In this document: in pieces, positions 16,097-57,290 of the stretch
Numbering within the stretch: the stretch's first letter is position 1
Layout of the letters: every line of letters starts with the position of its first letter
Assembly (NCBI GenBank): GCA_000990945.1
Contig: LBQR01000003.1
Coordinates: 11,089 to 75,088, forward strand
DNA: 64,000 nucleotides
Source: Candidatus Moranbacteria bacterium GW2011_GWF2_35_54
GTDB taxonomy: Bacteria; Patescibacteriota; Minisyncoccia; Moranbacterales; UBA9337
Direction: 5' to 3'
Made by a program: the position numbers and the translations under genes
Notes under the pieces: model-generated
What the model saw: only the letters and a program-made list of their open reading frames with translations
What the model was told of the DNA's origin: nothing
Databases searched by the model: none

Positions 16097-16120
16097 TTTA
16101 GCACGTTAGCATATTAATGA
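16097..16120 (-). promoter_or_regulatory. Upstream motif TAATATGCTAACGTGCTAA (gene-sense), upstream of murE-like gene
   Basis: One of 7 sites of this motif in the window. Confidence 0.5.
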
Positions 16121-16139
16121 TAAAATAAAGGACTCCCTG

Positions 16140-16226
16140 TGTCATCTCGAGCGCAACGACAGTGGAGTCGAGAGATCTAACAAATTTTATTTTTTGAGTA
16201 CAAAAATATATCCGGTCGAAATGACA
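16140..16226. mobile_element. MITE-like element, family C copy 1 (TIR TGTCATCTCGAGC ... GGTCGAAATGACA)
   Basis: 11/13-bp TIRs. A second longer copy at 52830-52944 shares the core gtcatctcgagcg.aacgacagtggagtcgagagatcta. Confidence 0.7.
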
Positions 16227-16330
16227 TGCTAAATTTTAAAAACTTCCCCTTTATTCTATCCCACTTTAAAAATATTTCCAAGGAAATTTTAAAGGGCGGG
16301 AAATGACTGCTGTCATCTCCCGCCCCGTTC

Positions 16331-16921
16331 TCAATATCGCTTTCGGCCTCCATGCTGAGAGCGATCAAACTCCTTATGATACATTTTCTCGTAATAACCA
16401 ACCAGATCTGGAAGGCTATAAGGAGGGTCAAATATCTCCCTCTTTGCATCCCGCTTGGCTTTCTCTCTAACCGAAAGTTTGCATTCCGACATAAAAACAT
16501 CGTAATACACCTGCTCCAGCTCCCGAGACAATCCAGTTGGTAAATCGTAACGAAGTTCACGAGCATCCTGCCTTGCTTTCATTTCAAGTTTCTCAGCTCG
16601 TTGAGCAAATTCTCCATACTCCGGATTCTTTGCTCGGTAATCCGTCACCCCCTGCTCGTATTCTCTGTGGCGATACTCATTAAAATCTCGCCGATTGGAA
16701 TATTTTTCGAAGCTTTCATATGCCCTCTCGTATTCCTCGTGATACTTTCCGGGAACACCTTCATATGACATACGTCCAGCTCTGGCATGCTTCTCTGCCA
16801 AATCTATGGCAAGCTGATATTCTTGATCATCCTTTAACCGGCGTGCATCTATTTTTTCATCACGCCTTCCTTTGTTATAGTCAGGCCCTCCTATTTCTTC
16901 CGTGATAACCATTTTCATCAT
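16331..16921 (-). CDS. Hypothetical highly charged (E/R/Y-rich) protein, in a locally GC-richer islet
   Basis: ORF; composition differs from its surroundings. No recognised domain. Confidence 0.45.
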   Translation of the reverse strand: MMKMVITEEIGGPDYNKGRRDEKIDARRLKDDQEYQLAIDLAEKHARAGRMSYEGVPGKYHEEYERAYESFEKYSNRRDFNEYRHREYEQGVTDYRAKNPEYGEFAQRAEKLEMKARQDARELRYDLPTGLSRELEQVYYDVFMSECKLSVREKAKRDAKREIFDPPYSLPDLVGYYEKMYHKEFDRSQHGGRKRY

Positions 16922-17156
16922 ACACTTCCGCCCCTACTCCAACACCATTGAAGGAAACAGAGCCCTTAATTCCATCATTGGGAATGTGGGTTTTTTTAAC
17001 CTGAAGACCCCCAGTACCATTTTTTTGAGAAGAATCAATCTTCTCCTGCTCGGCTTTATATTCAGTCCAAGACTTCTCCGGCAACATTCCCGCACAACCA
17101 TACAAAAATGACATGGATAGAAACAAACCAATCAGCGCTATTATGTTTTTTACCAT
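16881..17156 (-). CDS. Putative lipoprotein (lipobox LYGC)
   Basis: Signal peptide plus LYGCAG lipobox. Confidence 0.5.
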   Translation of the reverse strand: MVKNIIALIGLFLSMSFLYGCAGMLPEKSWTEYKAEQEKIDSSQKNGTGGLQVKKTHIPNDGIKGSVSFNGVGVGAEVYDENGYHGRNRRA

Positions 17157-17341
17157 ATTGAGGCCCTCCTTGAGCCTGTTTTCATTGAAAAATTTCGTAT
17201 AATCCCCAAATCTATTAAGATTTTGGAGATATTTGTCAAATTTACTATTTCATATCAGTATACCATATTTGACATTAAATGTCAAATTTTGCACGGGTAA
17301 CTCTTCACTGACCCCCCCCCTTCTCATATCTTTTTTTACCC

Positions 17342-17452
17342 GTCTCTGCGAGTAATTTTTGTACTCAAAAATTGCGTGGCAGTCTATAGAATATAATATA
17401 CAATTCAATCTGGGTCCTGGATTGCCACGACGGAGTACCGTCTCGCAAAGAC
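17342..17452. mobile_element. MITE-like element, family D copy 2, inserted within a flanking perfect inverted repeat cactgacccc/ggggtcagtg
   Basis: Same TIRs as 9858-9956. Confidence 0.7.
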
Positions 17453-17662
17453 AAACCTGTTTGTGCCGTAAAGGGGTCAGTGAGGAATTACTTTGCACGG
17501 CGTAGTCTGCTGTTTTAGCTTTATCCATAGTTTCATAATAAAAACAGGGTAGCCAAAATTTTTTGACTCCCTGTCTCACTTGCATCAAAGAAATTTCTTT
17601 ATATTATTATTTTACCCGAGGTGTAGCACCTACACCTCGGGTATTATTTGAGCAAACCCCAA

Positions 17663-17845
17663 TCAACACCTGGAAGCATTACCACTAGAATTTCTAGCAC
17701 CTCTTTCCGTTTCAAATTTCAAGCACACATATGCGCATGTATCCACTGAATTTTGAATCGTTTTAGAGCTTATATGCCCCCATTGAACCTCTGTGCCCGT
17801 ATCATCGAAAAGAACCACCCATTTTTCATCATCTTTTTTTTCCAT
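17663..17845 (-). CDS. Small hypothetical protein (60 aa), paralog of 17890-18105 (shared W.VLF...WG.I core)
   Basis: RBS aaaggag and -10 gtataat upstream of ATG(MEKKDD). Confidence 0.5.
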   Translation of the reverse strand: MEKKDDEKWVVLFDDTGTEVQWGHISSKTIQNSVDTCAYVCLKFETERGARNSSGNASRC

Positions 17846-17889
17846 AACACCATCTCCTTTTACATTATACCCTCGCATATAATTTCTTC

Positions 17890-18105
17890 TCACTCGTCAT
17901 TTTTAATCATTGCATCAAATGCTTCTTGTGCGCTAAGCGCAGATTCACACTCGAAAACCAGCCTTCTTGGATATTGCCCCCTATTCTCAAAAATAACCAT
18001 ATCATCCTTGTGACCTATTATCTCGCCCCAACAGAATGGCTGATTATTAGCGTTAAAAAGAACTCCCCACTCTCCATCACCTTTAACAATAGCGATATTA
18101 TTCAT
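17890..18105 (-). CDS. Small hypothetical protein (71 aa), paralog of 17663-17845
   Basis: Strong SD aagaggagg upstream of ATG(MNNIAIVKGDGEWGVLF). Confidence 0.5.
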   Translation of the reverse strand: MNNIAIVKGDGEWGVLFNANNQPFCWGEIIGHKDDMVIFENRGQYPRRLVFECESALSAQEAFDAMIKNDE

Positions 18106-18289
18106 TGTTTTTCCTCCTCTTATTTTAACAACAAAAAAAATCGCCCATTTTTTTAGGCGACCAGCTTCTTTGTCTATCAATTTTTATCCAAACAATTAGA
18201 AACAAGCTCGCCCTAAGCGATTATTATTGTTATTATTTGGATTTGATTGATAAATTCTCTTCATACTTTGATTATATATCTTTTGGATT

Positions 18290-18892
18290 TTATGTCAAAC
18301 AAAAATTATCATATTCTTTTTTCCACTGAATATTTCCTTTCTTGAATTCTATTTTTAACTTTCTTTTAACTATTTTCAATGTCTCCAACAATTCAGGAAA
18401 TTCTCCCACGGCTTTATCAGCATAATTAGCGATAAACTCTGGTTTATCATAAATTTTGTATCCACTTTCGGCAAGTTGAGTCAAAGTTTCAATTTTATCC
18501 AGAGCTTTCACAAATTTCGCTTCCCTGGTTTTATTTTCGTTATATTCATTTTGCAAAGCAGTGATTTCTTTTCCTACTAACGCGGGAAGAGTCTGTTGAA
18601 TTTTCTCAACTGCCCTAGCTTCTTGAATTTCTTTTTCTTCTTTAGAAATTTTTCCCTCGGCGATTAAGATCGCGTCAATATCTCCGGTCAAAGCTTCGGC
18701 CATAACATCAATTTCCAGCTTTAACTCATCAGCTAGCATGAATATCATTAAAGCTAATCGCCAAGAATGTTCAGCCGTTGATTCCTGTCGGCCCGAGGTT
18801 GTTTTATTATAGCGCAAAGTTGATTTTAATTTTTCTGCTACCTCTAAAAAATCAAAAATCTTTTCTAAATTTTCTAAATTATTTCCATTCAT
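18290..18892 (-). CDS. HD-domain 5'-deoxynucleotidase (YfbR-like)
   Basis: ESTAEHSWRLALM ... D.D motifs of the YfbR/HDDC2 family. Confidence 0.65.
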   Translation of the reverse strand: MNGNNLENLEKIFDFLEVAEKLKSTLRYNKTTSGRQESTAEHSWRLALMIFMLADELKLEIDVMAEALTGDIDAILIAEGKISKEEKEIQEARAVEKIQQTLPALVGKEITALQNEYNENKTREAKFVKALDKIETLTQLAESGYKIYDKPEFIANYADKAVGEFPELLETLKIVKRKLKIEFKKGNIQWKKEYDNFCLT

Positions 18893-19034
18893 AAAGTTTC
18901 AACTCTATCTTAATTTTTTTAATATTTTACAATTGTTTCAAGTGTATCTTAAAATTTTACGTTTATCAACAATTATATTTTTCATGTATTTTCCGATAAA
19001 ATCAGCCCCGATATCTTTAAATTAGCGACTCTTA

Positions 19035-19574
19035 CTAAATATATTCCAGCACATCGCTTGATTTTTTAATGGTATTTTTAACCATCTTTCCATACCGATC
19101 TTTTTTTAAATATTCTGATTCTATAATTAACGCATCTACGCCGACATCTTTTGCTGGTTTGTAATCCCAACGATAACTATCCCCAACCATCAGAGCCCTG
19201 CTTTTCGGTATTTTTCTTTTTTTTAATATTTTAAGAATAAATTCTCCTTTCGAAGATTGAATTTCTCGTGTCGCATGTATTTCATCAAACAATTTCACAA
19301 GTTTAAAATGTGCCACCTTATGATTGATGACAACGTCAGCTTCCTTGGGCGGATGAGGATGGGTTGAAAGTAAGATAACAGTCACTCCCAGTTTCTTTAA
19401 CTTTTTTAGAGTAACCAGTGCTGTCGGAATCATCATTAAATGCTCACAATAGTTGTCTTTACTATCCTCATGCGCATATATCCAATGTGGTTTCTCTGTG
19501 TACTTCGTTTTTTTTGGATACCACAAAGTCCCGTCACCATCCAAAAATATTATCTTTTTTTCATTTGCAATCAT
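19035..19574 (-). CDS. HAD-superfamily phosphatase
   Basis: Motif I FLDGDGTLW (DxDxT). Confidence 0.55.
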   Translation of the reverse strand: MIANEKKIIFLDGDGTLWYPKKTKYTEKPHWIYAHEDSKDNYCEHLMMIPTALVTLKKLKKLGVTVILLSTHPHPPKEADVVINHKVAHFKLVKLFDEIHATREIQSSKGEFILKILKKRKIPKSRALMVGDSYRWDYKPAKDVGVDALIIESEYLKKDRYGKMVKNTIKKSSDVLEYI

Positions 19575-20674: not shown

Positions 20675-20690
20675 AATTGATTTTTAATTT

Positions 20691-21302: not shown

Positions 21303-21398
21303 AGTGTTTATAAAAAATAGTAATTTGTCTCTGTGACCTCGAATAGCTGAAAAACTTTTATTGATTATCTTCGAGGTATTAATGCTTGATTTTGCGAA

Positions 21399-22007: not shown

Positions 22008-22061
22008 AATATTTTTATCAATCCATGCTTTTTTGTATTAACACCCAATATACTCAGCAAA

Positions 22062-23288: not shown

Positions 23289-23417
23289 TCTCCAACTTTA
23301 TAATTCCCTTTCCATTCATCAAACTCTTGATCTATTTTTTGCAAAAACATTATTTTTATTTTAGAAATAATAAAGTTTTGATATTTATTCTTTTAATTTG
23401 CCTTAAAAAAAATCTAT

Positions 23418-23708
23418 TTAAGTGCCCTCCTGCATATAATCACTAACAATCATTATTATTTTTTGAACATTTTTATTGCAAGATTTAAAATCGATTTTAT
23501 CTAAAATATCATTGCCATATTTTCTAATTAAATCACTAATGAGAGCATGAACAAACGATTGAGTTGCGGCATCAATGTTACTGAAATCCAACACAACCCT
23601 CTTGCCACTTTCTATGGCAGGTATGATTTCTTTGATTCTTATATCTCTAGCGATATCTTTATTTTCGGCGAAAGAGCCGACTCTTTCGAATAATTTAATA
23701 TTTTTCAT
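23418..23708 (-). CDS. STAS-like protein (DUF4325-type anti-sigma-antagonist fold)
   Basis: VVLDFSNID...QSFVHALI pattern. Overlaps upstream GHKL gene stop by 4 nt. Confidence 0.5.
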   Translation of the reverse strand: MKNIKLFERVGSFAENKDIARDIRIKEIIPAIESGKRVVLDFSNIDAATQSFVHALISDLIRKYGNDILDKIDFKSCNKNVQKIIMIVSDYMQEGT

Positions 23709-24658
23709 ACAAATTTAGGTTTTTTATATCTAGCTTTTCTTCTTTCTTTTACTGTTTTAGAATACACACCTCTAATTAAATCTAATAACTCTGAAAATTC
23801 TTTTGTTTCATCAAGAGAAATATCAACCCCCACAACTGTACCATCCCAAATCGGAAGCTTTTCTGATTTGGAATGTTTATCCCGAAATGGATCAGCAAAC
23901 AATTTATCAGAACCACTCTTTAATAATTTGTATAAAGCATCACCACTGTAAATCATAAAAAAATCATGATTCACTTTAGCTATAGTTTTAATAAAAAATA
24001 ATCCTGCTCCCGCATTATATTCCGTGCCACCTTCTTTTTTCGTCGTTCCGGTAATCCCAGGGATTAAAGCTAAACGAATAGCTTCCATATTGGTAAACGC
24101 ATTATGAGATTTATTTATAGTTTTTTTTATTCCTACTCCCGTATCCACAATTCCAATTGCGATTCTATTACTCTTTTTATAATACTGAGCAGATACAATT
24201 GCCCCATCTTTTGAACCAGAATGCTCTATAACGTTTCTAACCAATTCGCTCACCACGTATCGAATTGGATCAACTTGAGCAGGCTGAAGATGTAAAAGAG
24301 GTATAATTTCCTTAATGAAATGCGATAATTCCTCGGAATTTTTTATCTGAGTCAATGGAATAAATCGACCCGCTGATTCATGTTCTTCTACGCTTATTCC
24401 GGATTTAACACCTAAAAATTTAAATAATCCCATTCTTTGAAGATAATGAGCAGATTTTGCCGTAAGAGTTTCACAAATAATATTTTCTGGTTTTACCGGA
24501 AGACCAAGGGCAGCCACCATAGATAAAACTACTGGATGAACAGCGATCCAGCTTTCGTTTGCAGTAATTTCTAATTTTTCTTTATTGGAAAAATCAATAT
24601 TTTTTAAAAAAGGATCGATATTTCCAATAAATGCGCTATTTGGCAAATAAATATTCAT
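23705..24658 (-). CDS. GHKL-family ATPase/kinase (RsbW-like) with ~130-aa N-terminal domain of unknown function
   Basis: N-box ELVRNVIEHSG, G1 GIVDTGVGI, G2 GAGLFFIK. Confidence 0.6.
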   Translation of the reverse strand: MNIYLPNSAFIGNIDPFLKNIDFSNKEKLEITANESWIAVHPVVLSMVAALGLPVKPENIICETLTAKSAHYLQRMGLFKFLGVKSGISVEEHESAGRFIPLTQIKNSEELSHFIKEIIPLLHLQPAQVDPIRYVVSELVRNVIEHSGSKDGAIVSAQYYKKSNRIAIGIVDTGVGIKKTINKSHNAFTNMEAIRLALIPGITGTTKKEGGTEYNAGAGLFFIKTIAKVNHDFFMIYSGDALYKLLKSGSDKLFADPFRDKHSKSEKLPIWDGTVVGVDISLDETKEFSELLDLIRGVYSKTVKERRKARYKKPKFV

Positions 24659-24669
24659 ATTTTACTTAA

Positions 24670-24782
24670 TTTTACCGGGATTTGCATATTTTGTCAATTT
24701 ACCGGGATTCCCGGTAAAATAAACCACATACAAAAATTCTTAATTGTCATATATTTCACTACAAATATAAAATAGTCAGATA
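24670..24782. repeat. ~110-bp direct repeat copy 1 containing 19-bp perfect palindrome TTACCGGGATTCCCGGTAA (24699-24717)
   Basis: ~85% identical to 24952-25066. Starts 10 bp upstream of the GHKL gene start codon. Confidence 0.75.
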
Positions 24783-24951
24783 CTTTTCCATGATTCTATT
24801 TATAAATAAAATTTACTATTTTATACCTCAAATAAAGCATAATCCATAGTATGCATTGAACTATGGATAAAATGTGCAATAAAATGCCATTTTGTCCTTT
24901 ATCCATAGCTTATTTCTCTATACTTATTATACTATAGAACAATTAAACACT

Positions 24952-25066
24952 TTTACCGGGATTTGTAAAAATTGTCAAATTACCGGGAATCCCGGTAAAA
25001 TCAACAAAATGTAAAAAGTCTTGACTATTGTATATTCCACTATACAATAGTCAGAATGCACTTTTT
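24952..25066. repeat. ~110-bp direct repeat copy 2 with palindrome TTACCGGGAATCCCGGTAA (24980-24998) and perfect hairpin TGACTATTGTATA-ttccac-TATACAATAGTCA (25022-25053)
   Basis: Seen in sequence. Confidence 0.75.
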
Positions 25067-28808: not shown

Positions 28809-29621
28809 CTACTGATAATTTTGGAATTGCCTGCTGGGCAAATATTTCTTTATAAAGTTATCCGAGTCAAAAACATTAGCCTCTGCCTTGATATCCACAT
28901 TGGCTACATTTTCGCTGAATTTATAAGGCCAAATCAACTTAAAGTCTCTTTCCTCTTGGGATTTAATCGTTCTCATTTCACTCTTGCCCAAAGCGACCGG
29001 CTTTCCGTTTGCATCTCTCAAAATCATCACCAACTCGATAAAATTAAAATCAAAATTGCTCTCATTTCTCAAGAGTCCGGTTACTATGTTTTTTTCAAAC
29101 TCTTCGTAATAATTTTTTTGATATATGCTTAACTTCGGCTCTGCATATTCCAAAAATTCCTCCCATTGGACATCTTGTATTTCAAAATTCAATCGGTATG
29201 GATTAATGGAAGAATGCAAATTGAGCTCCACAATATATTTGCTTTCATCCGGTAAAACAAAACTGGTTCCTGCTCTCTTTTCTAAGACATTGCCCGCCTG
29301 ATCCAGCAATTGGAACTCATAATTAAATTTAACGGCTCCATATTTGTTGTTAACATTAGTAATGGCCGCCATTACGTCAAACTGATTTTTGTTGCCATAC
29401 ACAAAATACTTTTCATCTATCCTTATGTCTTGAGCCCGAATCTCTTCTTTGCAAGGCGCACAAACCCCACCGCAATCAATCCCGTTTTCTGATTGATTTT
29501 TTTTGCCATCCGTACAAGTTGCCGCTGGCTCAAAAATATAATAAATCAAAGCTCCCAAAACTCCAAAAAATACTATATACGCACAAATCACAATTAATCT
29601 TTTTGTCTTCCTATTCGTCAT
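28809..29621 (-). CDS. Hypothetical membrane-anchored protein with Cys-rich stretch (CTDGKK..CGGVCAPC)
   Basis: ORF with an N-terminal TM helix. Confidence 0.45.
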   Translation of the reverse strand: MTNRKTKRLIVICAYIVFFGVLGALIYYIFEPAATCTDGKKNQSENGIDCGGVCAPCKEEIRAQDIRIDEKYFVYGNKNQFDVMAAITNVNNKYGAVKFNYEFQLLDQAGNVLEKRAGTSFVLPDESKYIVELNLHSSINPYRLNFEIQDVQWEEFLEYAEPKLSIYQKNYYEEFEKNIVTGLLRNESNFDFNFIELVMILRDANGKPVALGKSEMRTIKSQEERDFKLIWPYKFSENVANVDIKAEANVFDSDNFIKKYLPSRQFQNYQ

Positions 29622-29696
29622 TTTAATTTAATGCTTTAAAACTTATTTTCACAAATTTATTATACCGCTAAAAACAATAACTGCCAATGCGGGACA

Positions 29697-29736
29697 TTTT
29701 AGCACGTTAGCAAAATCATGTTAGCATATTAACATT
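29697..29736 (-). promoter_or_regulatory. Upstream motif (gene-sense aatgttaatatgctaacatgattttgctaacgtgctaaaa)
   Basis: Site of the recurrent TAATATGCTAAC[A/G]TG motif. Points toward 28809-29621. Confidence 0.5.
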
Positions 29737-29880
29737 AAAACATAAGAACAATGTAATAATTAAGTTAAAAGTCACCAAAGTAAAGATTTATGATTTATGA
29801 AAAAATATTTATTATTCTCAAATTCTCAAATTCCTAAACTCGTCAATGGGTCAATATTTTAACAAATAAAAAAATATTAT

Positions 29881-29916
29881 TGTGCTAATATGTTGATATG
29901 CTAATATGCTAAAATG
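29881..29916 (+). promoter_or_regulatory. Upstream motif (gtgctaatatgttgatatgctaatatgctaaaatg) pointing toward rsmA
   Basis: Inverted orientation relative to 29697-29736, as expected for divergent genes. Confidence 0.5.
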
Positions 29917-29983
29917 ATTTAATTTGCTTTATCTCTTCTATTAATCTAAGCTAGAAGTAAATAATATTTAAGCTGAAAAATTT

Positions 29984-30958: not shown

Positions 30959-32572
30959 TTAAAAAACAACCAACTTTATCAAAACAGCCAGATAAATAAT
31001 GACCAGACCCATGACCCACCAGATTAAGTTGCGGTTACTTATCTTTTTATTTTCTCCGCTAGAAGTCACCACCCAAAAAGACAACCCTCCGACAATAATC
31101 GCCCACAATAATAATCGAGACTCGTTTAGCAGAATCACACTTAAAAAATAAGATAAAAATATTCCGCTACCAATGATAATTTTTCCCCAATATTCGCCAA
31201 AGACTACCGGGATAGTTGCCACTCCGTCCAATTTATCCCCTTTAATATCCTTTAGATCCTTGATGGGCAAGGCTAACGTTAAAGAAAATAACATTAACCA
31301 AAAAATTCTTTTGGGAAATTCTATTATATCTTGAGAAAAAGTAACCAGAATAAAGCCCGCAAAAATTACCAAAAGCGAGGCCAACGCGCTGATAAAAGTT
31401 GATAGGAAAGTAAATCTTTTCAATCTAAGCGGCCAAGCAGAATAAAGCCAAGCTAGCATTTGATAAGCCAGAAGCAGTAAGGCTATCTTGGGGTTTATCA
31501 AAGCTGCATATAAAATAGAAAAAGCAAAAAGCACTACTCCGATTGTTATGTATTCATCCTGCCTAAAATCCCCCACTATCAAAGGACGCTTATCATTAGT
31601 AACTTTGTCTATTTTTTTATCAAAAATATCATTGAAAACCACCGAAGCCAGCCACGCCAGAGAGATTGCGATAACTATATTCAAAAAACTGATAAAATTA
31701 AAAAAACTAAAATCCCAATTAATTTCAGTTAAAGAAATTCCCAACCCCATTCCCACAAATAACAATCCTGCATGATAAATTAATTGGACGGGACGAGAGT
31801 TTTTCAAAAAAGATATGAACTTATCTTTATAATAAAAAAATAATCCCAAAATAATCAATCCTGCCAACAAAACTGCATAAACGAGAGAGATTTTAATGCT
31901 CAGTGCGTTAGTATAATTTCCTGTTTCTCGAGAGAACAATCTGGCAGAAGTAAAAAATAATTGCACAATGTCCATATCTTTCACCTGCATAAAGCCCTTA
32001 GAAAAACCTTTCACCGCTATAGTTGCCCACGAAGGAGATGTCCCCAGCACAAATAAAATTATATAAGTTTGCAATGCTAAAAATAAACCCCTTATTTTAC
32101 TTTTTGTTTTCAAATATCCGTAAATGCCCAAAGCTATCACTGCCATTGCGATTTCAAATCTGACTCCGTAAGTTACTCCAAAGTCAGGGCTATCTCCAAA
32201 AAAAGTAAAAAATCTTCGAGGCATCTCTGCTAAACTGTAAACGCCATAAAAACTTAAATACAATTTATCTTTAAATAAGATAAAATCAATCAAAGGAGGA
32301 AATATAATAATCAAATATCCCCAAATTAATACATTGGAAGCTATTTTTATCTTAATTTTCAAATTTTTAATAAGCAGACCCAAAAGTATCAGATAGGTCA
32401 AAAGAAAAAAGAAAAAAGTATAAGCAACATGGTGAAAAAAATAATTTCCTGTTCTACTTACCATTCCATCAATCCGAGCCGTAATAATACCCAAAAAAGT
32501 ACAGAGCCAAATATAAAAAGAAGTAGGAGAATTTTCTATTTTTTTAATTAAATCTTTTAGAGATAAAACCAT
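30959..32572 (-). CDS. Polytopic membrane protein with C-terminal UbiA-family prenyltransferase domain
   Basis: NDIFDKKIDKVTNDKRPL (NDxxDxxxD) motif plus ~14 TM helices. Confidence 0.55.
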   Translation of the reverse strand: MVLSLKDLIKKIENSPTSFYIWLCTFLGIITARIDGMVSRTGNYFFHHVAYTFFFFLLTYLILLGLLIKNLKIKIKIASNVLIWGYLIIIFPPLIDFILFKDKLYLSFYGVYSLAEMPRRFFTFFGDSPDFGVTYGVRFEIAMAVIALGIYGYLKTKSKIRGLFLALQTYIILFVLGTSPSWATIAVKGFSKGFMQVKDMDIVQLFFTSARLFSRETGNYTNALSIKISLVYAVLLAGLIILGLFFYYKDKFISFLKNSRPVQLIYHAGLLFVGMGLGISLTEINWDFSFFNFISFLNIVIAISLAWLASVVFNDIFDKKIDKVTNDKRPLIVGDFRQDEYITIGVVLFAFSILYAALINPKIALLLLAYQMLAWLYSAWPLRLKRFTFLSTFISALASLLVIFAGFILVTFSQDIIEFPKRIFWLMLFSLTLALPIKDLKDIKGDKLDGVATIPVVFGEYWGKIIIGSGIFLSYFLSVILLNESRLLLWAIIVGGLSFWVVTSSGENKKISNRNLIWWVMGLVIIYLAVLIKLVVF

Positions 32573-32580: not shown

Positions 32581-32620
32581 GGCATGCAACATATTAACAT
32601 TTTAACATGTTAACAAGCAA
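32581..32620 (-). promoter_or_regulatory. Upstream motif variant (gene-sense aaaatgttaatatgttgcatg) abutting the UbiA-like gene start
   Basis: Variant of the recurrent motif. Confidence 0.4.
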
Positions 32621-32726
32621 ATAACTTAACACTGAAACAAATTATTATTCGTCAACAGTCATTGAATCATCGAGTCATGAAACATGAAAACAATATAACA
32701 ATTTAGCAATATACCAATTTGATATT

Positions 32727-32838
32727 ATTCGTATATCCGTATTTAATTAGTAATTAGTAAAGATTTCGTAATTTCGTAAAATTCGCCCGCCACGTGATAA
32801 AAAATTTATTTTTTATTTTACGTGGTATTTCGTAGGGG
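32727..32838. promoter_or_regulatory. Array of TTCGTA direct repeats (ttattcgtatatccgta...tttcgtaatttcgtaaaattcg...atttcgtagggg) in divergent promoter region
   Basis: Same hexamer arrays at 49019-49052 and 55631-55648. Confidence 0.45.
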
Positions 32839-32949
32839 CATAAAAAGGATACCATTAAAAGCATTGCCAAATCAAGTATTTTTATGCTATAATTTTTTTA
32901 GAAGATTTTATGCCGTTACAGAATTTAAAATAAAAAAATAAACAGAATT

Positions 32950-36930: not shown

Positions 36931-36981
36931 CATGCTACAATGCTAATATGCTGAAATGTTAATATGTTAACGTGAATAACT
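36931..36981 (+). promoter_or_regulatory. Upstream motif (gctaatatgctgaaatgttaatatgttaacgtgaataact) ending at dnaX ATG
   Basis: Variant of the recurrent motif, adjacent to the start codon. Confidence 0.5.
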
Positions 36982-38676: not shown

Positions 38677-38750
38677 ATAATCATGGAGCAATAATCATAG
38701 AACATAAAACATTTCTGTTATGTGTTATATGCTATGTGATTTGTGAAAAT

Positions 38751-41534: not shown

Positions 41535-41822
41535 TTAATTGGCGGGATTTTTAGGAGCGCGAGTCTGGCTGATGAGACAAATGTTTCGAAAAGTAACCGT
41601 TTTGCCGTCTTCTCCGCTTTTGGTATTTTCTGTTATTCCGAAAGAATAAGTATTACCAATAGCTACGCCTAATTTCTCAAAATCTGTTTGCGCTCGACTG
41701 ACCTGACCGTCTCGTTTAGTTTGAAAAAAAGAATAAAAGTTGCCTCCAGCTTTGATAGCTACTCGACCATTTTCCACTTTGATATCCTCTACTGTCAAAT
41801 CCATAAATTTTATATCACTCAT
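41535..41822 (-). CDS. Small hypothetical protein (95 aa) sharing the structured leader with the Pif1 gene
   Basis: ORF begins immediately after conserved leader copy B. Confidence 0.5.
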   Translation of the reverse strand: MSDIKFMDLTVEDIKVENGRVAIKAGGNFYSFFQTKRDGQVSRAQTDFEKLGVAIGNTYSFGITENTKSGEDGKTVTFRNICLISQTRAPKNPAN

Positions 41823-41915
41823 TTTTTATTTACCCCCCATTAAATAACAAAGCTTACTTCGATTTAACGGGGTAAACCGTCAAATTGTAATAATTCACAT
41901 TATTTAACTGGGGTG
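41823..41915 (-). promoter_or_regulatory. Conserved structured 5' leader (copy B)
   Basis: Aligns with 2783-2876: cattttttatttacccccc-attaaat ... atttaacggggtaaacc..caaattg ... atttaactgggg. Confidence 0.5.
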
Positions 41916-49018: not shown

Positions 49019-49052
49019 ATTCGTATATTCGTATGAATTCGTAATTCGTAGA
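49019..49052. promoter_or_regulatory. TTCGTA x4 direct-repeat array (attcgtatattcgtatgaattcgtaattcgtag), ~220 bp upstream of giant surface protein gene
   Basis: Hexamer spacing 8-9 bp. Confidence 0.45.
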
Positions 49053-49589: not shown

Positions 49590-49597
49590 GGTTTTAA

Positions 49598-49635
49598 CCC
49601 CGCAGGCTGCGTGCCAGTCTGCGGGTGTTTTTATT
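49598..49635 (+). terminator. Intrinsic terminator (cccgcag...ctgcggg + tgtttttattt)
   Basis: Seen in sequence. Confidence 0.65.
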
Positions 49636-49690
49636 TAAAAATAGCGGTCCAACCGCTAAAGCTTTAGCGGTTGGACCGCTATTTTTTAAG
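49636..49690. terminator. Perfect 24-bp-arm palindrome aaaatagcggtccaaccgctaaag|ctttagcggttggaccgctatttt flanked by A/T runs (bidirectional terminator-like)
   Basis: Seen in sequence. Confidence 0.6.
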
Positions 49691-49740
49691 GTTGTTTTAT
49701 TTCTTTTTATGTTTATTTGCTTTAATGCTATTTTGTTTTT

Positions 49741-51084
49741 ATGTTTTATGTTAAACTTATTTTTGTAAGAGTTTATTTTTCACCTTTTATTATGCACGTT
49801 CTAAACATTCTCACAACTTCATCTGATACTTTTTCCTTGATCGCTTATTTCATCATTTTTTTGGTAGCTCTTTTTGAGTCCATTCCGATGTTTGGATTTT
49901 TTATCCCCGGCCAAATTGTGGCTGTAACGGCCGGACTAATAGCTAAAGTTGGTTCCTTAGATATTGTCATTGTGATAATTGTCTTATTTCTGGGCGCAGT
50001 CGCGGGAGATTTAATCGGATATCTTTTAGGGAAAAAATATGGAGAAAATTTTATTATTAAATACGGCAAATATTTTTTTCTCAAAAAAGAAAACTTTGAA
50101 AAAACTCGCAACTTAGTTAATGAACACACTGGCAAAACTATTATCATCGGGCGATTTAACTCTGTTACCCGCGCTTTTGCTCCTTTTACCGCCGGCTCCG
50201 TAGGCATTCCTTTCTCTAAATTCATTCTTTATGACATTTTGGGCGGTATCTTTTGGGCCCTATCTTTTGCGATGCTCGGCTATATTTTCGGCAATAATTA
50301 TAAAGCTATCAGTAATTATTTTGGAGAATTTATCCTTATCGCCATCCTTATCGGTGCGCTAATTATTTATCTATACAAAAAAATAAATAAAAAAAGGCGA
50401 ATTTTTGATCGCCGCCATCTTTATATTTTACTAATCAATCTTTTTTCTCTCTATGTATTTTTTAGAATGCTGGATAATTTTGTCGAACAAGAGCTTCTCG
50501 TCAGCTGGGATAAATGGATAAACTCTCATATTCAAATACTTTGGAGCCCTTTCTTAAATAAACTAATGATATTTACTACCAATTTGGGTGGCGCCACCTT
50601 TCTAATCATTGCTTCCATAATTCTTTTGGCCTTTTTCATCTCAAAAAAGAAATGGCGCTACTCTACTCTTTTAATCTTATCCTTGGCAGGAGGACAACTA
50701 CTCCAAGTTTTAACCAAACACCTAATTGGCCGAGAACGCCCACTTGACGCGCTCATCCAAGCTTCCGGCTTTAGTTTGCCCAGTGGTCACGCTACCAGAA
50801 TTGCGATATTTTTTGCTCTTTTAATTTATTATTTTAAAAATCATCTCAAAAATTCCTACTTAAAGTATTTCCTCATTACGCTTTGTTTTTTTATTATTTT
50901 AAGTGTAGGTTTTAGTCGTATTTATCTCAGTGTCCATTGGTTTACTGATGTTATTGCTGGGTTTGCACTGGGAATTTTTTGGCTTACTTTCCTCATCCTA
51001 ACACTTGAAGTAGTTTCAACAGTCTTTAAAGAAAAAATAACTAAATTAAAAAATTACCTTAATAAAAACTCTAGAAGTTTATAA
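49741..51084 (+). CDS. DedA-family membrane protein fused to PAP2 (undecaprenyl-diphosphatase-like) phosphatase
   Basis: DedA core GFFIPGQIVAVTAGL ... GRFNSVTRAFAPFTAG. PAP2 motifs KHLIGRERP, PSGH, SRIYLSVHWFTDV. Alternative start at 49789. Confidence 0.7.
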   Translation: MFYVKLIFVRVYFSPFIMHVLNILTTSSDTFSLIAYFIIFLVALFESIPMFGFFIPGQIVAVTAGLIAKVGSLDIVIVIIVLFLGAVAGDLIGYLLGKKYGENFIIKYGKYFFLKKENFEKTRNLVNEHTGKTIIIGRFNSVTRAFAPFTAGSVGIPFSKFILYDILGGIFWALSFAMLGYIFGNNYKAISNYFGEFILIAILIGALIIYLYKKINKKRRIFDRRHLYILLINLFSLYVFFRMLDNFVEQELLVSWDKWINSHIQILWSPFLNKLMIFTTNLGGATFLIIASIILLAFFISKKKWRYSTLLILSLAGGQLLQVLTKHLIGRERPLDALIQASGFSLPSGHATRIAIFFALLIYYFKNHLKNSYLKYFLITLCFFIILSVGFSRIYLSVHWFTDVIAGFALGIFWLTFLILTLEVVSTVFKEKITKLKNYLNKNSRSL

Positions 51085-51112
51085 AGTTGCAAGTTTTTAA
51101 AGTTTATAAAGT

Positions 51113-51463
51113 ATGGTAAAAATAGAAAAATTTGAAGATATTATTGTTTGGCAAAAATCAAAATTACTCATTGTTGATGTGTATAAAGATTTTAGAGACT
51201 GTAGAGATTATGCTTTCCGTGATCAAATTCAAAGAGCTTCCGTTTCAATAATGAATAATATTGCAGAAGGCTACGAAAGAATGGATAACAAAGAATTCGC
51301 AAAATTTTTGTATATTGCTAAAGGTTCGTGTGGGGAGGTTCGTTCAATGCTTCACTTAGCATTAGATTTGGGATACATTAGCGAAAAAACCTTTAATTTA
51401 AACTTAGAGAGAACACTAGAAATCTCTAGAATGCTATCGGGCTTTATCAAAAAGCTAAAATAA
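51113..51463 (+). CDS. Four-helix-bundle protein (23S rRNA intervening-sequence-protein-like family)
   Basis: IAEGYER....EF..FLYIAKGSCGE pattern. Confidence 0.65.
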   Translation: MVKIEKFEDIIVWQKSKLLIVDVYKDFRDCRDYAFRDQIQRASVSIMNNIAEGYERMDNKEFAKFLYIAKGSCGEVRSMLHLALDLGYISEKTFNLNLERTLEISRMLSGFIKKLK

Positions 51464-51546
51464 GCCACTAAAAAATCATTCGCTTCATAAATTCTTTTTA
51501 TTTTGGAAACTTTCTCTCACTTTACAAACTTTATAAACTTTATGAA

Positions 51547-51575
51547 CTGCGTTATTAATTTTATTCATAACGCAG
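51547..51575. terminator. Hairpin ctgcgttat-N11-ataacgcag overlapping stop of permease gene
   Basis: Seen in sequence. Confidence 0.45.
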
Positions 51576-52775: not shown

Positions 52776-52811
52776 ATTAGCACGTTAGCATATTAGCATA
52801 TTAACAATGGA
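52776..52811 (-). promoter_or_regulatory. Upstream motif (gene-sense gttaatatgctaatatgctaacgtgctaat) abutting permease ATG
   Basis: Recurrent motif. Confidence 0.5.
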
Positions 52812-52829
52812 ACAAAAAAATTATTCGTG

Positions 52830-52944
52830 TGTCATCTCGAGCGAAACGACAGTGGAGTCGAGAGATCTAATAAATTTTATATACAATTAAGATTTCTCCA
52901 CGCATAAATTTATGAGTACATAAATTTATTTGGTCGAAATGACA
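52830..52944. mobile_element. MITE-like element, family C copy 2
   Basis: Same TIRs and core as 16140-16226, with extra internal segment. Confidence 0.7.
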
Positions 52945-52989
52945 TACACCTAGAACATTCACAATTTTTAATTATTCATTTTTAATTTT

Positions 52990-53667: not shown

Positions 53668-53768
53668 AATTATATTTTTTAAGACTTATGCGCTTAAGCT
53701 ATGCAATTCCAGTTTCTAAAAAATAATATTTAAAAACGCAAGTCCTGTCTTTATTTAATATTCATTAA

Positions 53769-54992
53769 TTAATCCCGCGGACCACCGCCACCGCTTATAC
53801 CAGGAATTCTTATCGAGGAACTGTTGCTTTTATTGTTAGTGCTCGAAATACTGCTAGTAGCTGTTTGTCCACCTGTGGTAGTTATTGTTTTGGTAACAAC
53901 TTCTTGCCCCTCGGTAATTCCGCTTACTATTTCAGTGTTAACATCGTTAGTGTTTCCTGCTGTTACATTAATTTTTTTGGGCACGCCTCGTTCTAACACT
54001 TCTACATAATCTCCTTTTTGACCATTTTTAATGGCACCACTGGGAATCATTATTACATTTTCTTTTTTATCAACTGAAATAACAGACGAGACGCTCATTG
54101 TGGGCTTAATGCGATCATCCAATTGATCGAATTTCACAGTTACTCCATAACTCACTACGCCTGATGTAGCTGTACCAATTGAATCTATTTTTTCCACTTC
54201 TCCGGTAAAATTTGTATCCGCCAGAGCATCCAGCGTGATAGAAACTTTTTGCCCGACTGCTACTTTGGCGATATCTACTTCATTAACAGGGATTTCGGCT
54301 TTTAAAGTTTTTAAATCACCCACAATAAGCGCTGACTCACTTGCATTATTGGAAGAAGAACCTAACTCATCTCCATTTTTTATTGAAACTTCTATAATTG
54401 TTCCAGCAATCGGAGAAGTAACTTTTCTCTTGCCAGCGTCTGAAACTATATTTCTATAAGAAGATGCAGAAGCGCTCAGACTTTTTTGGGCCTGAATTAT
54501 GGAACCTTCGGCTAAATCTATTTTATTTTTTAAAACATCCAATTGCCTACCGGTATAAGCATCATCGTCATCATCATCTTTATTTTTTGCTACTCTGTAT
54601 TCTGCTTCGGCTGAAAGTTTTGAATTTTTAGCTGAGTCTAAATTATTTAAAGCTTGCTGATAAGAAGCATTAGATTGAGCTACATTTGCATCTAGGTCAT
54701 CATTTACAACACTAAAAAGAAAATCTCCCTTTTTAACTGTATCTCCAACCTTTACCGCCAAATCAGCAATTGTTCCGCTGATAGTTGGGTCAACAGTTTC
54801 TTGGGAATCCACCACAATGCTTCCACTGGCGATAATTGTCGATTCTAGAGTTCCCTTTTCAGCGGCTTGGGTTACGTAGCGAACGCTAGCCGTACTGGAT
54901 TTGCTTTTTTTATACCAATAAAATCCTCCTCCCAAAACAATTAATCCTATTAGCAAACCGATATATAGTTTTTTCTTCTTCATCTTTATCAA
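53769..54992 (-). CDS. Efflux membrane-fusion (HlyD/MacA/YknX-like) periplasmic adaptor protein
   Basis: N-terminal TM, coiled-coil, beta-barrel regions. Gly/Ser-rich C-terminal tail. Confidence 0.7.
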   Translation of the reverse strand: MIKMKKKKLYIGLLIGLIVLGGGFYWYKKSKSSTASVRYVTQAAEKGTLESTIIASGSIVVDSQETVDPTISGTIADLAVKVGDTVKKGDFLFSVVNDDLDANVAQSNASYQQALNNLDSAKNSKLSAEAEYRVAKNKDDDDDDAYTGRQLDVLKNKIDLAEGSIIQAQKSLSASASSYRNIVSDAGKRKVTSPIAGTIIEVSIKNGDELGSSSNNASESALIVGDLKTLKAEIPVNEVDIAKVAVGQKVSITLDALADTNFTGEVEKIDSIGTATSGVVSYGVTVKFDQLDDRIKPTMSVSSVISVDKKENVIMIPSGAIKNGQKGDYVEVLERGVPKKINVTAGNTNDVNTEIVSGITEGQEVVTKTITTTGGQTATSSISSTNNKSNSSSIRIPGISGGGGPRD

Positions 54993-55106
54993 ATTAAAAT
55001 ATTATAATTAAAACATTTTTTATGCATATTAATAATACGATTTCTATCCAAAAAGTTTGCAAAAACCGCTTGCCTGCTGGCAAGCGGAAAATTAAATTAA
55101 TTATTT

Positions 55107-55526
55107 TTATTCAACTGCATTTGCGCCAGTTTGTGCTTGAGATCCGCCTTTTCCCGGCCCTCCTTTTGGCATATCAGCAGATTTACATGCGACTATTTCA
55201 CTGTTTTGCATCTGTGTGCATACTCCTGATATTTTTTTAACCTCGTTTTCTTCATTGTTTCTAGCAGGCATAGCTACTTCACAACTGTCTCCAATAGCTT
55301 TTCCGTTACAAACAGTTTCGGCTTCTGCAGAAAACTTTCCTGCACCTCTATCGCTTCTTTCACCATTAACTCCTTGCACAGCTTGGTTTTGCACCTGATT
55401 TTGCTCCATGTTTTTATTTTCTTCTCCGGTTTTTTGAGTCTCTTTTCCCCCGCAGCCTGCCAATGAAAAAGATATTCCTATTAAAAATAAAAAAACAATA
55501 CTCAGTTTAATATTTCTTCTTAACAT
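55107..55526 (-). CDS. Cys-rich putative lipoprotein (lipobox LAGC)
   Basis: Signal peptide + LAGCGG. Six Cys in the mature part. Confidence 0.5.
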   Translation of the reverse strand: MLRRNIKLSIVFLFLIGISFSLAGCGGKETQKTGEENKNMEQNQVQNQAVQGVNGERSDRGAGKFSAEAETVCNGKAIGDSCEVAMPARNNEENEVKKISGVCTQMQNSEIVACKSADMPKGGPGKGGSQAQTGANAVE

Positions 55527-55630
55527 TTTTATTATTTATTATTTATATTAAAATATGGTGATTCAATCTAGATTTTAAATCACACATTGGCCATATAAAT
55601 ATTACGCACAAAAAAAATAAAGTTTGCAGT

Positions 55631-55648
55631 TACTACGAATTACGAATC
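55631..55648. promoter_or_regulatory. TTCGTA x2 (tacgaattacgaat on + strand) upstream of the lipoprotein gene
   Basis: Same hexamer as arrays at 32727 and 49019. Confidence 0.35.
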
Positions 55649-55806
55649 TATATAAATATATGAATTTAAGAATTTGGAAATTTATGATTTTAAGAACAAA
55701 ATAAACAAGATTTATTTGAATATTATAATTTTCAATGACTGGTTACAGATGACTGATGACTTTGTGATTTAATTTTATTTGACATTTGGATTTTGAAATT
55801 TTAAAC

Positions 55807-56523
55807 TTAACGCCTGTCTGGTTTTCTATCAAAGGGTGGTGGCAAAACCAATGAAGCCTTGAAAATATGCTCGCCTATTTTTTCTCCGATAATAGCCACC
55901 ATAATATTTTCTTCCATTTTTCTAATTTTAAATTCTGTTTCATTCGAATAGCGAACCTCCCAAACTTCATTATCAAATCCCCTTAAATTAAAAAACTCTT
56001 CATCTATTTTAATTATTTTTCCACCCAATAATCCCTCTTGCGGATCTTGCCATCTTTTTTCTACAGGAAAAGCAATTCCTCTGGACATCGGCCTGTTAAA
56101 CATTTTGCCTTCTCCCATATGCCTATTAATCTTAGCTAAATGTAAAAACGCTCCCAGCATAGAAATAATTAAAACTCCGATACTGGTAATAAAAAGAATG
56201 CTATATCGATATCCTCTTTTGGTTTTTTTAATCGCTAAAAATCCACTCACTCCGGCCAAAATGGCTAACACTATCCACAGATAAGGAGCGGTTCTAGCTA
56301 AAATAAAAAATATTCTTCCCAAACCTAATTGGCGAATAACACTTGGATGAATATCTAATAAGTTTAAAATAATAAAAGAAAAAAATATCGCCCCCAAAAA
56401 CAAAGTGGTCATCCAAATAAACCAAAAAAGATAATTTTTCCAGTTCAAAAAAATTTTTGACTCTGGGACAATTTTTTCTTGTTTTATTTTTTCAATAATT
56501 TTCTGGGCGGGATTTTTTTCCAT
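55807..56523 (-). CDS. Membrane protein, putative anti-sigma factor partner of adjacent ECF sigma
   Basis: Position immediately downstream of ECF sigma. Several TM helices. No conserved domain recognised. Confidence 0.4.
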   Translation of the reverse strand: MEKNPAQKIIEKIKQEKIVPESKIFLNWKNYLFWFIWMTTLFLGAIFFSFIILNLLDIHPSVIRQLGLGRIFFILARTAPYLWIVLAILAGVSGFLAIKKTKRGYRYSILFITSIGVLIISMLGAFLHLAKINRHMGEGKMFNRPMSRGIAFPVEKRWQDPQEGLLGGKIIKIDEEFFNLRGFDNEVWEVRYSNETEFKIRKMEENIMVAIIGEKIGEHIFKASLVLPPPFDRKPDRR

Positions 56524-56545
56524 ACATTTATAAATTTACACTTTT

Positions 56546-56589
56546 CACCCTCTCCCCCTCCCTGAGGGGGAGAATTAAAGAGGGGGTGA
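56546..56589. repeat. Family R copy 4 (tcaccctctccccctccctgagggggagaattaaagagggggtgaa)
   Basis: Seen in sequence. Confidence 0.8.
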
Positions 56590-56643
56590 AAAAGTCAATC
56601 TCTTATTTTAAATAATAGTATTTTTAACACGTAGGTCTTATGC

Positions 56644-57174
56644 TTATATAATTTTTTTATTCTTAGCTTCTGTTAGAATAATCTTTCTTCCTCTATTTAC
56701 CAATGAAGCGATAGTGCCCTTGGGGAGTTGCACAATATCCATAATTTCTTCATAACTTTTTTCTTCGATAAACCTTAGCATCAAAACTTCTTTATATTTG
56801 TCCGGTAAATTTACGATGATATCTTTTATTTTTTCCAGCGAATCGGCATTAACATATTCTTTTTCCATATTAAGACTGGACTTAAGTACTTTTACCAAAT
56901 CTTCATCTTCTAGCCAAATAGTAGAAGGCCGTGCTTTTCTCTTTCGTATTTCATCAATCGTGGCATTTCTGGTGATCTGATAAACCCAGGTAGAAAAAGT
57001 CATTTCTGTATCATAATCATTCAAATACCGATAAATTTTAATAAAAACTTCTTGCAAAATATCTTCGATATCCTCTTGGGAAAAATAGGACATTCGGCGG
57101 ATATAACAAAACAACCGGCTCCAATACCGAGTTACAATTGCTTGAAATTCATCTGGATTTTTTATAGCTGCCAA
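56644..57174 (-). CDS. ECF-type RNA polymerase sigma-70 family factor
   Basis: Region 2 LQEVFIKIYRYLNDY. Region 4 HTH VLMLRFIEEKSYEEIMDIVQLPKGTIASLVNRGRK. Confidence 0.8.
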   Translation of the reverse strand: MAAIKNPDEFQAIVTRYWSRLFCYIRRMSYFSQEDIEDILQEVFIKIYRYLNDYDTEMTFSTWVYQITRNATIDEIRKRKARPSTIWLEDEDLVKVLKSSLNMEKEYVNADSLEKIKDIIVNLPDKYKEVLMLRFIEEKSYEEIMDIVQLPKGTIASLVNRGRKIILTEAKNKKII

Positions 57175-57230
57175 TACTAAATCTTTACATGAATGTACTT
57201 ATATTATACGCCTAAGAACGAAATTGTTTG

Positions 57231-57290
57231 CATTAAATCATGTTAGCATATTAACATTTTAGCATGAAAACAAATAAACATGTTCCCTCT
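57231..57290 (-). promoter_or_regulatory. Upstream motif (gene-sense tgctaaaatgttaatatgctaacatgattt) 60-110 bp upstream of ECF sigma gene
   Basis: 24-mer aatgttaatatgctaacatgattt identical to the site at 29697-29736. Confidence 0.5.

Follow-up and report, generated by a model that had tools for sequence, protein, structure and literature searches.

What is the role of a short sequence that recurs in front of unrelated bacterial genes and always points toward them? The question is raised by a stretch of 64,000 nucleotides (nt) from Candidatus Moranbacteria bacterium GW2011_GWF2_35_54 (contig LBQR01000003.1, positions 11,089 to 75,088; the whole stretch is called the window, positions are those within it, and loci outside it carry L numbers), for which a preliminary description had listed such a motif upstream of seven genes. 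The DnaX and ABC permease proteins of the window are 100% identical to those of Candidatus Moranbacteria bacterium GW2011_GWE1_35_17, a member of the Parcubacteria and the Candidate Phyla Radiation (CPR). Parcubacteria and Moranbacteria are uncultured and have genomes of about 1 Mb with few regulators. To our knowledge, nothing is known experimentally about transcription and translation start in these organisms. We confirm that the recurrent motif is real: it is a gene-oriented direct repeat with a period of 8 bp in intergenic DNA. Based on its sequence and placement, we tentatively favour, at somewhat less than even confidence, the reading that each array is a stack of overlapping extended -10 elements at which the housekeeping sigma-70 RNA polymerase enters.

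We count as an array at least two cores TG[CT]TAA with a spacing of exactly 8 bp. The motif is a head-to-tail tandem direct repeat of the unit [A/G/T]TG[C/T]TAAN, present in runs of 2–5 units. The window contains nine arrays, compared with 0.10 expected from 200 dinucleotide-preserving shuffles of the window (shuffle maximum 1) and 0.05 when the intergenic DNA alone is shuffled. All nine arrays lie in intergenic DNA, which makes up 15% of the window, and all nine are oriented toward a gene start; recurrence and gene orientation, as initially claimed, both hold. The seven sites listed in the preliminary description are found where it placed them, and each points to the gene it named: murE, the gene of an FxLYD-domain protein (28809-29621), rsmA, the gene of a UbiA-family prenyltransferase, dnaX, and the genes of a MacB-type ABC permease and of an extracytoplasmic function (ECF) sigma factor. 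Two sites are added here, a second sub-array before the FxLYD-domain gene and an array at 58238-58269 before rplL. Allowing at most one mismatch, TAATATGCTAAC matches seven times in the window (0.52 expected), a number reached by no shuffle, and the 24-mer AAATCATGTTAGCATATTAACATT is indeed identical at two sites (positions 29713 and 57235). Furthermore, TGCTAA is the top enriched hexamer in the 150 nt upstream of the window genes, with 18 sense and no antisense occurrences against 2.5 expected. The arrays lie 0, 10, 20, 67, 70, 76, 95, 98, and 98 nt before the start codon, in rough agreement with the 0–20 and 60–110 nt of the preliminary description.

First, we focus on the unit itself. With its bases numbered N1 T2 G3 Y4 T5 A6 A7 N8, a unit and the next two bases read TG-n-TAAnnT: T2G3 corresponds to the TG of an extended -10 element, Y4 to the n, and T5A6A7N8 together with N1'T2' of the next unit to a -10 hexamer TAAnnT. 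Because the final T of one hexamer is also the T of the next TG, an 8-bp stutter regenerates TGnTAnnnT every 8 bp. The TG lies one base before the hexamer, as in an extended -10 element, a match that is partly built into the array definition, and degenerate flanking units retain this TG best of all positions. The hexamer bases T1, A2, and T6 are provided by T5, A6, and T2' of the next unit, and position 1 supplies the purine before the TG (TRTG): among 100 units, it is A in 71, G in 18, T in 11, and never C, i.e., a purine in 89. Position 4 is C or T, and position 8, the fourth base of the hexamer, is A, C, or T. The string TGYTAAAAT, which matches TATAAT at five of six positions, is present in 15 of 29 arrays. 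That TGcTAAAAT looks like an extended -10 box, as the preliminary description already remarked, is upheld and forms the core of the reading favoured here. Orientation follows the TG as well: TG-containing arrays point toward a gene start in 21 cases and toward a gene end in one, whereas generic period-8 TAA arrays without TG show little bias (21:13).

The TRTG purine form of the extended -10 element is typical of low-GC bacteria, and across bacteria the distribution of transcription start sites centres 7 bp after the -10 element, according to an analysis that covers one CPR species (bioRxiv 10.1101/2025.01.23.634641). The arrays resemble such promoters in the TG one base before TAnnnT and in the purine preceding it, no -35 element is evident within them, and the host lineage otherwise uses sigma-70-type promoters. 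Some of these contain a TG, for example TTGCCA-18-TGcTATAAT (32864-32893), which is conserved in orthologues. In contrast to known extended -10 promoters, the arrays, as putative promoters, iterate the element every 8 bp in 2–7 copies whose neighbours share a T, their hexamer is TAAnnT with an invariant A at the third position, and some of them precede another complete promoter.

The arrays fall into two classes by position. Proximal arrays end 0–20 nt before the start codon and have no further promoter-like site between them and it; in the window, these are the permease, dnaX, and UbiA-like arrays. The permease array (52776-52807, minus strand) has four units, TTGTTAAT ATGCTAAT ATGCTAAC GTGCTAAT, and abuts the ATG of the MacB-type permease gene (52775), a start codon that can be relied upon because the N-terminus is conserved in four genomes. 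Its last TGCTAACGT (52782-52790) is separated from the A of the ATG by 6 nt, which places the first T of the hexamer at -12. The dnaX array (36932-36973, plus strand) consists of five to six units, ATGCTACA ATGCTAAT ATGCTGAA ATGTTAAT ATGTTAAC GT, the last TGTTAACGT ending 8 nt before the ATG (36982). The UbiA-like array (32591-32616, minus strand), with three units TTGTTAAC ATGTTAAA ATGTTAAT, lies 20 nt before the start at 32572 and holds three overlapping TGTTAAnnT elements. A decayed relative of the proximal arrays, a degenerate T-rich period-8 array of the same unit family at 49692-49752 (plus strand; TTGTTTTA ... ATGCTATT TTGTTTTT ATGTTTT), runs into the start of a DedA/PAP2 gene.

Among 11 independent proximal arrays, in the window and in relatives, five (the window permease, L009, L010, dnaX in L013, and gatA in L094) have a spacer of exactly 6 nt between the last hexamer and the A of the ATG, against an expectation of about 1.4; several others have spacers of 8–9 nt, up to 18 nt. 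A first T of TANNNT at -12, with a strong TG in low-GC genomes, is the signature of leaderless genes (PMC3160421), and it is this position that the 6-nt spacer yields. Promoters of leaderless mRNAs, in which the -10 element abuts the open reading frame (ORF), are found in Actinobacteria, Deinococcus-Thermus, and some Firmicutes (PMC3160421, PMC12340547). The proximal arrays share with them the first T of TANNNT 12 nt before the ATG, the TG seen in low-GC genomes, and the absence of a Shine-Dalgarno sequence: all in-phase starts are ATG without a GGAG-like sequence upstream, and array-bearing genes lack a Shine-Dalgarno, which is present in 37 of 166 genes (22%) in the clade loci overall. They differ from the leaderless promoters of those clades in that only array-bearing genes show the arrangement and in that several proximal spacers are 8–18 nt long.

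The distal arrays end 10–20 nt upstream of the -35 element of a canonical promoter that is itself conserved in orthologues, an arrangement seen at five independent promoters. Before the FxLYD-domain gene, two sub-arrays (29698-29735, minus strand; ATGTTAAT ATGCTAAC and TTGCTAAC GTGCTAAA) end 10 nt before the -35 element of TTGGCA-17-TATAAT, which lies 3' of the array at 29659-29687 (minus strand) and is conserved in L140, L136, and L139. The rsmA array (29882-29913, plus strand; four units GTGCTAAT ATGTTGAT ATGCTAAT ATGCTAAA) likewise ends 10 nt before the -35 element of a core promoter, TTGCTT-17-TAAGCT (29924-29952, plus strand), conserved in L140 and L136. The ECF sigma array (57242-57265, minus strand) has three units, ATGCTAAA ATGTTAAT ATGCTAAC, followed in register by ATGATTTA ATGCAAAC, and lies directly upstream of the core promoter TGCAAAC-N17-TATAAT (57203-57232, minus strand), conserved in L189, L190, and L191. 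In relatives, the tRNA-Ser locus of UBA9337 (L008) has a TTGCTC-17-TATTAT promoter downstream of its array, and L006 and L007 show a comparable arrangement. A fixed phase between distal array and core promoter holds for the three window cases and fails in L006, L007, and L008. The two remaining arrays of the window lie at 67–98 nt as well. That of murE (16097-16112, minus strand; two units ATGCTAAC GTGCTAAA) is 98 nt upstream of the gene (start 15998), with a GC-rich hairpin repeat between array and ATG, and that of rplL (58238-58269, minus strand; TTGTTAAA TTGCTAAA AGGTTAAA TTGTTAAA), also found in L191, lies between rplJ and rplL and ends 79 nt before the rplL start.

The suggestion that the motif is the consensus promoter of this organism is not sustained, as many genes have a canonical TTGNCA-17-TATAAT promoter that is conserved in orthologues. 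Since such conserved promoters also lie downstream of the distal arrays, the motif is not the organism's only or main promoter type. As a separate observation on the ECF sigma gene, its three orthologues have an ATG 9–12 nt after the conserved TATAAT and are thus nearly leaderless; in the window (57167-57232), the equivalent ATG (57190) stands directly before a TAA and a different reading frame carries on the conserved N-terminus, and the window gene is therefore N-terminally truncated or frameshifted.

Conservation in related genomes, proposed earlier as a check, is found, and the unit recurs across Moranbacteria. A 19-mer scan with one genome per species returned seven loci in four Moranbacteria-type assemblies, including GWA2_39_41 and BMS3Abin15, in which DnaX is only about 47–48% identical to that of the window (about 47% for L007 and L010). 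The persistence of the unit down to this level of identity implies a conserved reader. To avoid selection by motif, a second set of loci was fetched by protein homology (237 kb in total including the window). In this set, 16 of 16 arrays are intergenic and directed toward a gene start, where chance would give 0.57 per array, and none lies in coding DNA or at a gene 3' end. The density of arrays depends on the lineage, with nine per 64 kb in the window and none in about 21 kb from each of two relatives. The genes served are housekeeping genes, namely dnaX, murE, rsmA, and rplL in the window and pth, smpB, gatA, and a tRNA gene in relatives.

At single loci, the arrays are both retained and turned over. 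Orthologues of dnaX and the UbiA-like gene at 72–80% identity keep an array beside the ATG. The dnaX array is present, with differing unit number, in L011, L013, and L186; a more distant orthologue (L014, 66%) has a single GTGCTAAAAT. In UBA9337, whose DnaX is 96% identical, there are eight units compared with six in the window, and the middle units have decayed to TTGTTTTA. The UbiA-like array is conserved in L140 and L136 and degenerate in L186, and the ECF sigma array is present in L190 and L191, where changes across the three genomes fall only on unit positions 1, 4, and 8. The rsmA and permease arrays are replaced in relatives by other 8-bp repeats, (GGAAATTG)n, (ATTCAAAA)n, and (ATACTAAN)n.

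From the pattern, position, orientation, phase, conservation, and turnover of the arrays, we infer that polymerase might initiate at them and that some might give rise to leaderless mRNAs. At proximal arrays, transcription is predicted to start 7 nt after the last complete element, a position that falls on the ATG or a few bases from it; genes without a Shine-Dalgarno, among them dnaX and the permease gene, would thereby have leaderless or very short-leader mRNAs. A distal array would offer the polymerase further entry points in the same direction, i.e., tandem promoters, before the canonical -35 and -10 elements. The arrays themselves would arise, and be resized, by slippage.

Several observations weigh against this extended -10 reading. 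The third base of the hexamer is always A, which sigma-70 recognition does not require. The conserved promoters downstream of the arrays at rsmA, the FxLYD-domain gene, the ECF sigma gene, and L008 indicate that the array is not the main promoter there. The rsmA and FxLYD-domain gene arrays are poorly conserved, and in L136 the rsmA array has been replaced by (GGAAATTG)n with the core promoter still conserved. In three genomes, no unit of the ECF sigma array has lost its TG or TAA, a conservation that suits the site of an upstream activator at least as well as redundant promoters. At the start codons, non-array TAnnnT elements at a 6-nt spacer are not in excess in the clade loci, and the clade thus makes no general use of leaderless expression. 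An ATG in phase could simply result when arrays extend by duplication until they reach the start codon. A candidate promoter, TTGACT-18-TATAAA, lies upstream of the UbiA array in L136, and such an upstream promoter could put some proximal arrays inside the 5' untranslated region. Finally, two arrays that abut a start lack the TG and the final T, (AAGCTAAN)n at rplL in L189 and (ATACTAAN)n at the permease gene in L191. These repeats (L189 3878-3917 and L191 9959-9998) lie 2–3 nt from the respective starts, have only CTAA in common with the motif, and are not -10-like.

What else might read the unit? The global-regulator operator and the repeat family raised in the preliminary description both stay among the rival explanations. 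For the former, the arrays would be operators of a hypothetical Moranbacteria-wide regulator, each subunit or dimer of which would occupy one unit in an 8-bp register. It would activate from just upstream of the -35 element at distal arrays, and would repress or replace the promoter where a proximal array overlaps the start region. We consider this unlikely, although slightly less so than the other rivals. Its geometry has a precedent, as the met boxes of MetJ are tandem 8-bp units. MetJ and the omega repressor are ribbon-helix-helix proteins, and the arrays share with met boxes and with the heptads of the omega repressor units of 7–8 bp, two to five or more tandem copies, and a location in the promoter regions of several unrelated genes. 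Moreover, the position of the distal arrays 10–20 nt upstream of conserved -35 elements at five independent promoters, the invariant TG and TAA of the ECF sigma array in three genomes, and the retention of the unit across deep divergence would all suit a bound protein, and housekeeping targets such as dnaX, murE, rsmA, pth, smpB, gatA, and tRNA would fit a growth-rate regulator. The unit variant TGTTAACA, which is fairly common, is a perfect 8-bp palindrome. The dominant units, with C at position 4 and T or A at position 8, are not palindromic, in contrast to a met box, since a C at position 4 would need a G at position 7, which is never seen. The strict orientation of the arrays (21:1) sets them apart from met boxes and omega arrays and is not needed by a repressor, and their unit mimics a promoter element: it agrees with TRTGnTAnnnT down to the position-1 purine, an agreement whose chance we estimate at a few percent for an arbitrary 8-mer. 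Replacement by unrelated 8-bp repeats at orthologous positions also speaks against an operator. With an 8-bp spacing, successive sites would lie on different faces of the helix, and we know of such tandem sites only for MetJ-type proteins. A simpler operator, the dimer-type inverted repeat CATGTTA-N6-TAACATG of the preliminary description, is not borne out; the repeat is imperfect, is present at only two of the nine sites, reads TAACATT there, and results from the units ATGTTAAT and ATGCTAAC happening to adjoin.

Alternatively, the arrays might be essentially non-adaptive slippage repeats that grew from promoter-like seeds (TTGCTA or TGCTAAAAT) and were possibly spread by small mobile elements, with the orientation bias inherited from the seed or kept only by selection against antisense transcription. 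This explanation, too, seems unlikely, and slightly more so than a regulator. In its favour, the intergenic DNA of the window shows a general excess of period-7 and period-8 repeats with many different units, which remains after the motif is masked, and Tandem Repeats Finder reports 17 period-8 repeats in about 10 kb of intergenic DNA compared with six in 54 kb of coding DNA. Examples of such period-7 and period-8 repeats are located at 29785-29833, 32657-32779, 49019-49050, and 55662-55696. The change in unit number between close relatives (six versus eight at dnaX) and the other 8-bp repeats at orthologous sites point in the same direction. Two arrays adjoin copies of one repeat resembling a miniature inverted-repeat transposable element (MITE), of about 130 nt with terminal inverted repeats TGTCATCTCGAGC ... 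GGTCGAAATGACA. One copy (16116-16227, minus strand) lies directly upstream of the murE array and the other (52806-52945, minus strand; 84–86% identical to the first) directly upstream of the permease array. Joint mobility of arrays and MITE-like repeat was rejected because only two of the nine arrays adjoin a copy.

Outside the clade, a scan of metagenomes for three consecutive units gave at least 120 loci, mostly (GTGCTAAT)n, on contigs of 25–60% GC; among the matches listed, nearly all are intergenic and orientation is mixed. Some of the contigs belong to Bacteroidota, with a PorK/GldK equivalog in L068 and Sphingobacteriales/Bacteroidales contigs in L001, L003, and L004, so that arrays of the motif unit exist without orientation bias in Bacteroidota-like DNA. 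Three composition-matched control octamers gave 10, 9, and 6 loci in viral contigs compared with 20 for the real unit, i.e., control arrays are only two to three times rarer. Both the lack of orientation bias in Bacteroidota-like contigs and these control counts speak for a non-adaptive origin. As octamer microsatellites of any sequence are common, we draw no functional link from recurrence beyond the clade. What disfavours a non-adaptive origin is the conservation of the unit across deep divergence, with TG and TAA invariant down to about 47% DnaX identity and at orthologous ECF sigma, dnaX, and UbiA sites. The nine arrays against 0.1 expected, their absence from coding DNA and gene 3' ends in Moranbacteria, and the phase relation to start codons argue against it as well.

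Among known repeats, contingency loci such as the Haemophilus influenzae hmw genes carry 7-bp promoter repeats. The arrays resemble these in having 7–8-bp units beside promoter elements and a variable copy number (six versus eight at dnaX), and differ from them in that the targets are housekeeping genes rather than surface or variable genes and that one unit is common to many loci and species. With the short tandemly repeated repetitive (STRR) heptamers of cyanobacteria and with repetitive extragenic palindromic (REP) and MITE repeats, they share short, dispersed, intergenic copies and, in two cases, the adjoining MITE-like element; unlike these, they have no hairpin potential, are strictly oriented toward gene starts, and are absent from gene 3' ends in Moranbacteria.

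A third rival places the arrays in the mRNA, as a transcribed leader that ribosomes coming from upstream would traverse by repeated termination and reinitiation until they reach the start codon in phase with the units. We regard this as improbable. Position 1 is never C, and every unit therefore carries an ATG, GTG, or TTG start codon. An ATG is followed by an in-frame TAA 12 nt later, giving a four-codon mini-ORF (MLIC*) whose stop lies 1 nt before the next-but-one AUG, and the 8-nt period with a TAA per unit places stops in all three frames. Five of the 11 proximal arrays are in phase with the start codon, the permease and rplL arrays are located inside operons, a Shine-Dalgarno-like sequence is found in only 22% of genes, the leaders are unstructured, and TAA is the sole feature shared with the start-abutting (AAGCTAAN)n and (ATACTAAN)n of relatives. 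This rival is disfavoured because the distal arrays, including one upstream of a tRNA-Ser promoter, precede conserved promoters and are thus probably not part of an mRNA leader. Furthermore, four arrays sit in divergent intergenic regions without a same-strand gene upstream, distances of 67–98 nt to the start codon are unfit for termination-reinitiation coupling, and TAA arrays without TG show no clear orientation bias.

A combination of promoter and leader can also be envisaged, in the form of a self-propagating expression module of the clade, in which stutter regenerates the extended -10 element, the purine at the start site is the A of an AUG, and the UAA closes the four-codon mini-ORF. Polymerase would enter at any unit, the transcript would be leaderless, and ribosomes would be passed along the array to the in-phase start. 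The number of units could then tune the expression of housekeeping genes in organisms with few regulators and little use of the Shine-Dalgarno sequence. We likewise hold this combined module to be improbable.

The remaining candidates were rejected: an ECF-type promoter AAC-N16/17-CGT (no window array has that spacing, the 16-bp super-period, where it exists, gives a 15-nt gap, and TATAAT is conserved in the promoter of the ECF sigma gene); a structured RNA or riboswitch (among Rfam covariance models run over the whole window, only tRNA and L10 leader reach the gathering score and none matches an array, and the arrays fold no better than shuffles, with z-scores of -1.3 to +1.6); a hairpin repeat of the REP, MITE, or terminator type (the same z-scores, and no Moranbacteria array at a gene 3' end); pairs of -35 and -10 elements built from units in phase (not possible, as offsets of 8k+4 leave spacers of 14 or 22 nt); and parS, the DnaA box, or the Bacteroidetes -7 motif TAnnTTTG, whose sequences do not match by inspection.

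Some further repeats of the window and of the metagenome contigs are recorded here in their own right. A 23S_rRNA_IVP gene (51113-51463, Pfam E=1e-35) lies between inverted 9-mer arrays, (AAGTTTATA)n at 51075-51112 and (ACTTTATAA)n at 51519-51548 (region 51075-51548). The IVP gene is present at the equivalent place in L189 and absent from L190 and L191, and thus looks like an inserted cassette. In Bacteroidota-like metagenome and genome contigs, four-helix-bundle IVP genes between inverted (GTGCTAAT)n arrays are found in L016 (2352-2909), L025 (1999-2566), L122 (5330-5793), and L004 (1460-1500), and pairs of inverted arrays that enclose no gene form hairpins at the 3' ends of genes in L001, L003, L022, and L028. 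A GC-rich palindromic family, TCCCCTCTCCCCCTC..GAGGGGGAGATGCCG..CAGAGGGGGTG, occurs at 9678, 16063, 30761, 56546, 57283, 60246, and 61018 in this genome of 36% GC, and several copies at gene 3' ends are terminator-like. The 2.2 kb upstream of murE (16100-18290) contain only short ORFs without a Pfam match, and 17340-17457 within it and 9856-9961 in the intergenic region at 9.8–10.0 kb have two segments of about 45 nt in common (94–95% identity, spanning about 100 nt).

Other upstream regions of the window show sequence features of different kinds. A leader of about 90 nt is shared, at 78% identity, by 2784-2874 (at a PIF1-like helicase gene, 1040-2782) and 41822-41912 (at a 95-aa ORF, 41535-41822); it has a G-rich stretch beside the start codon and a complementary ACCCCG, no Rfam match, and may be a cis-regulatory RNA. 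A duplicated 92-nt block (24670-24761 and 24951-25042, 80% identity) lies upstream of a HATPase-domain gene (23705-24658); each block contains TTGACA-17-TAAAAT and a palindrome, TTACCGGGAATCCCGGTAA, that has the appearance of a classic operator. Upstream of tRNA-Gln, at a distance of 13 nt, there is a period-7 relative of the unit (TGTTATG TGTTATA TGCTATG, 38716-38738).

Our search of the literature on the repeat sequence, on CPR promoters, on leaderless Patescibacteria, and on repeats at IVP genes found no description of such arrays. Clade-wide, gene-oriented arrays of an iterated extended -10 element in phase with start codons would provide a concrete and testable model for how genes are expressed in Moranbacteria. 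The arrays bear on the birth and tuning of promoters, which might proceed by slippage of an 8-bp unit. For annotation, they indicate which start codons are the true ones and where transcription units lie in these genomes. Should a regulator bind the arrays instead, they would define its regulon.

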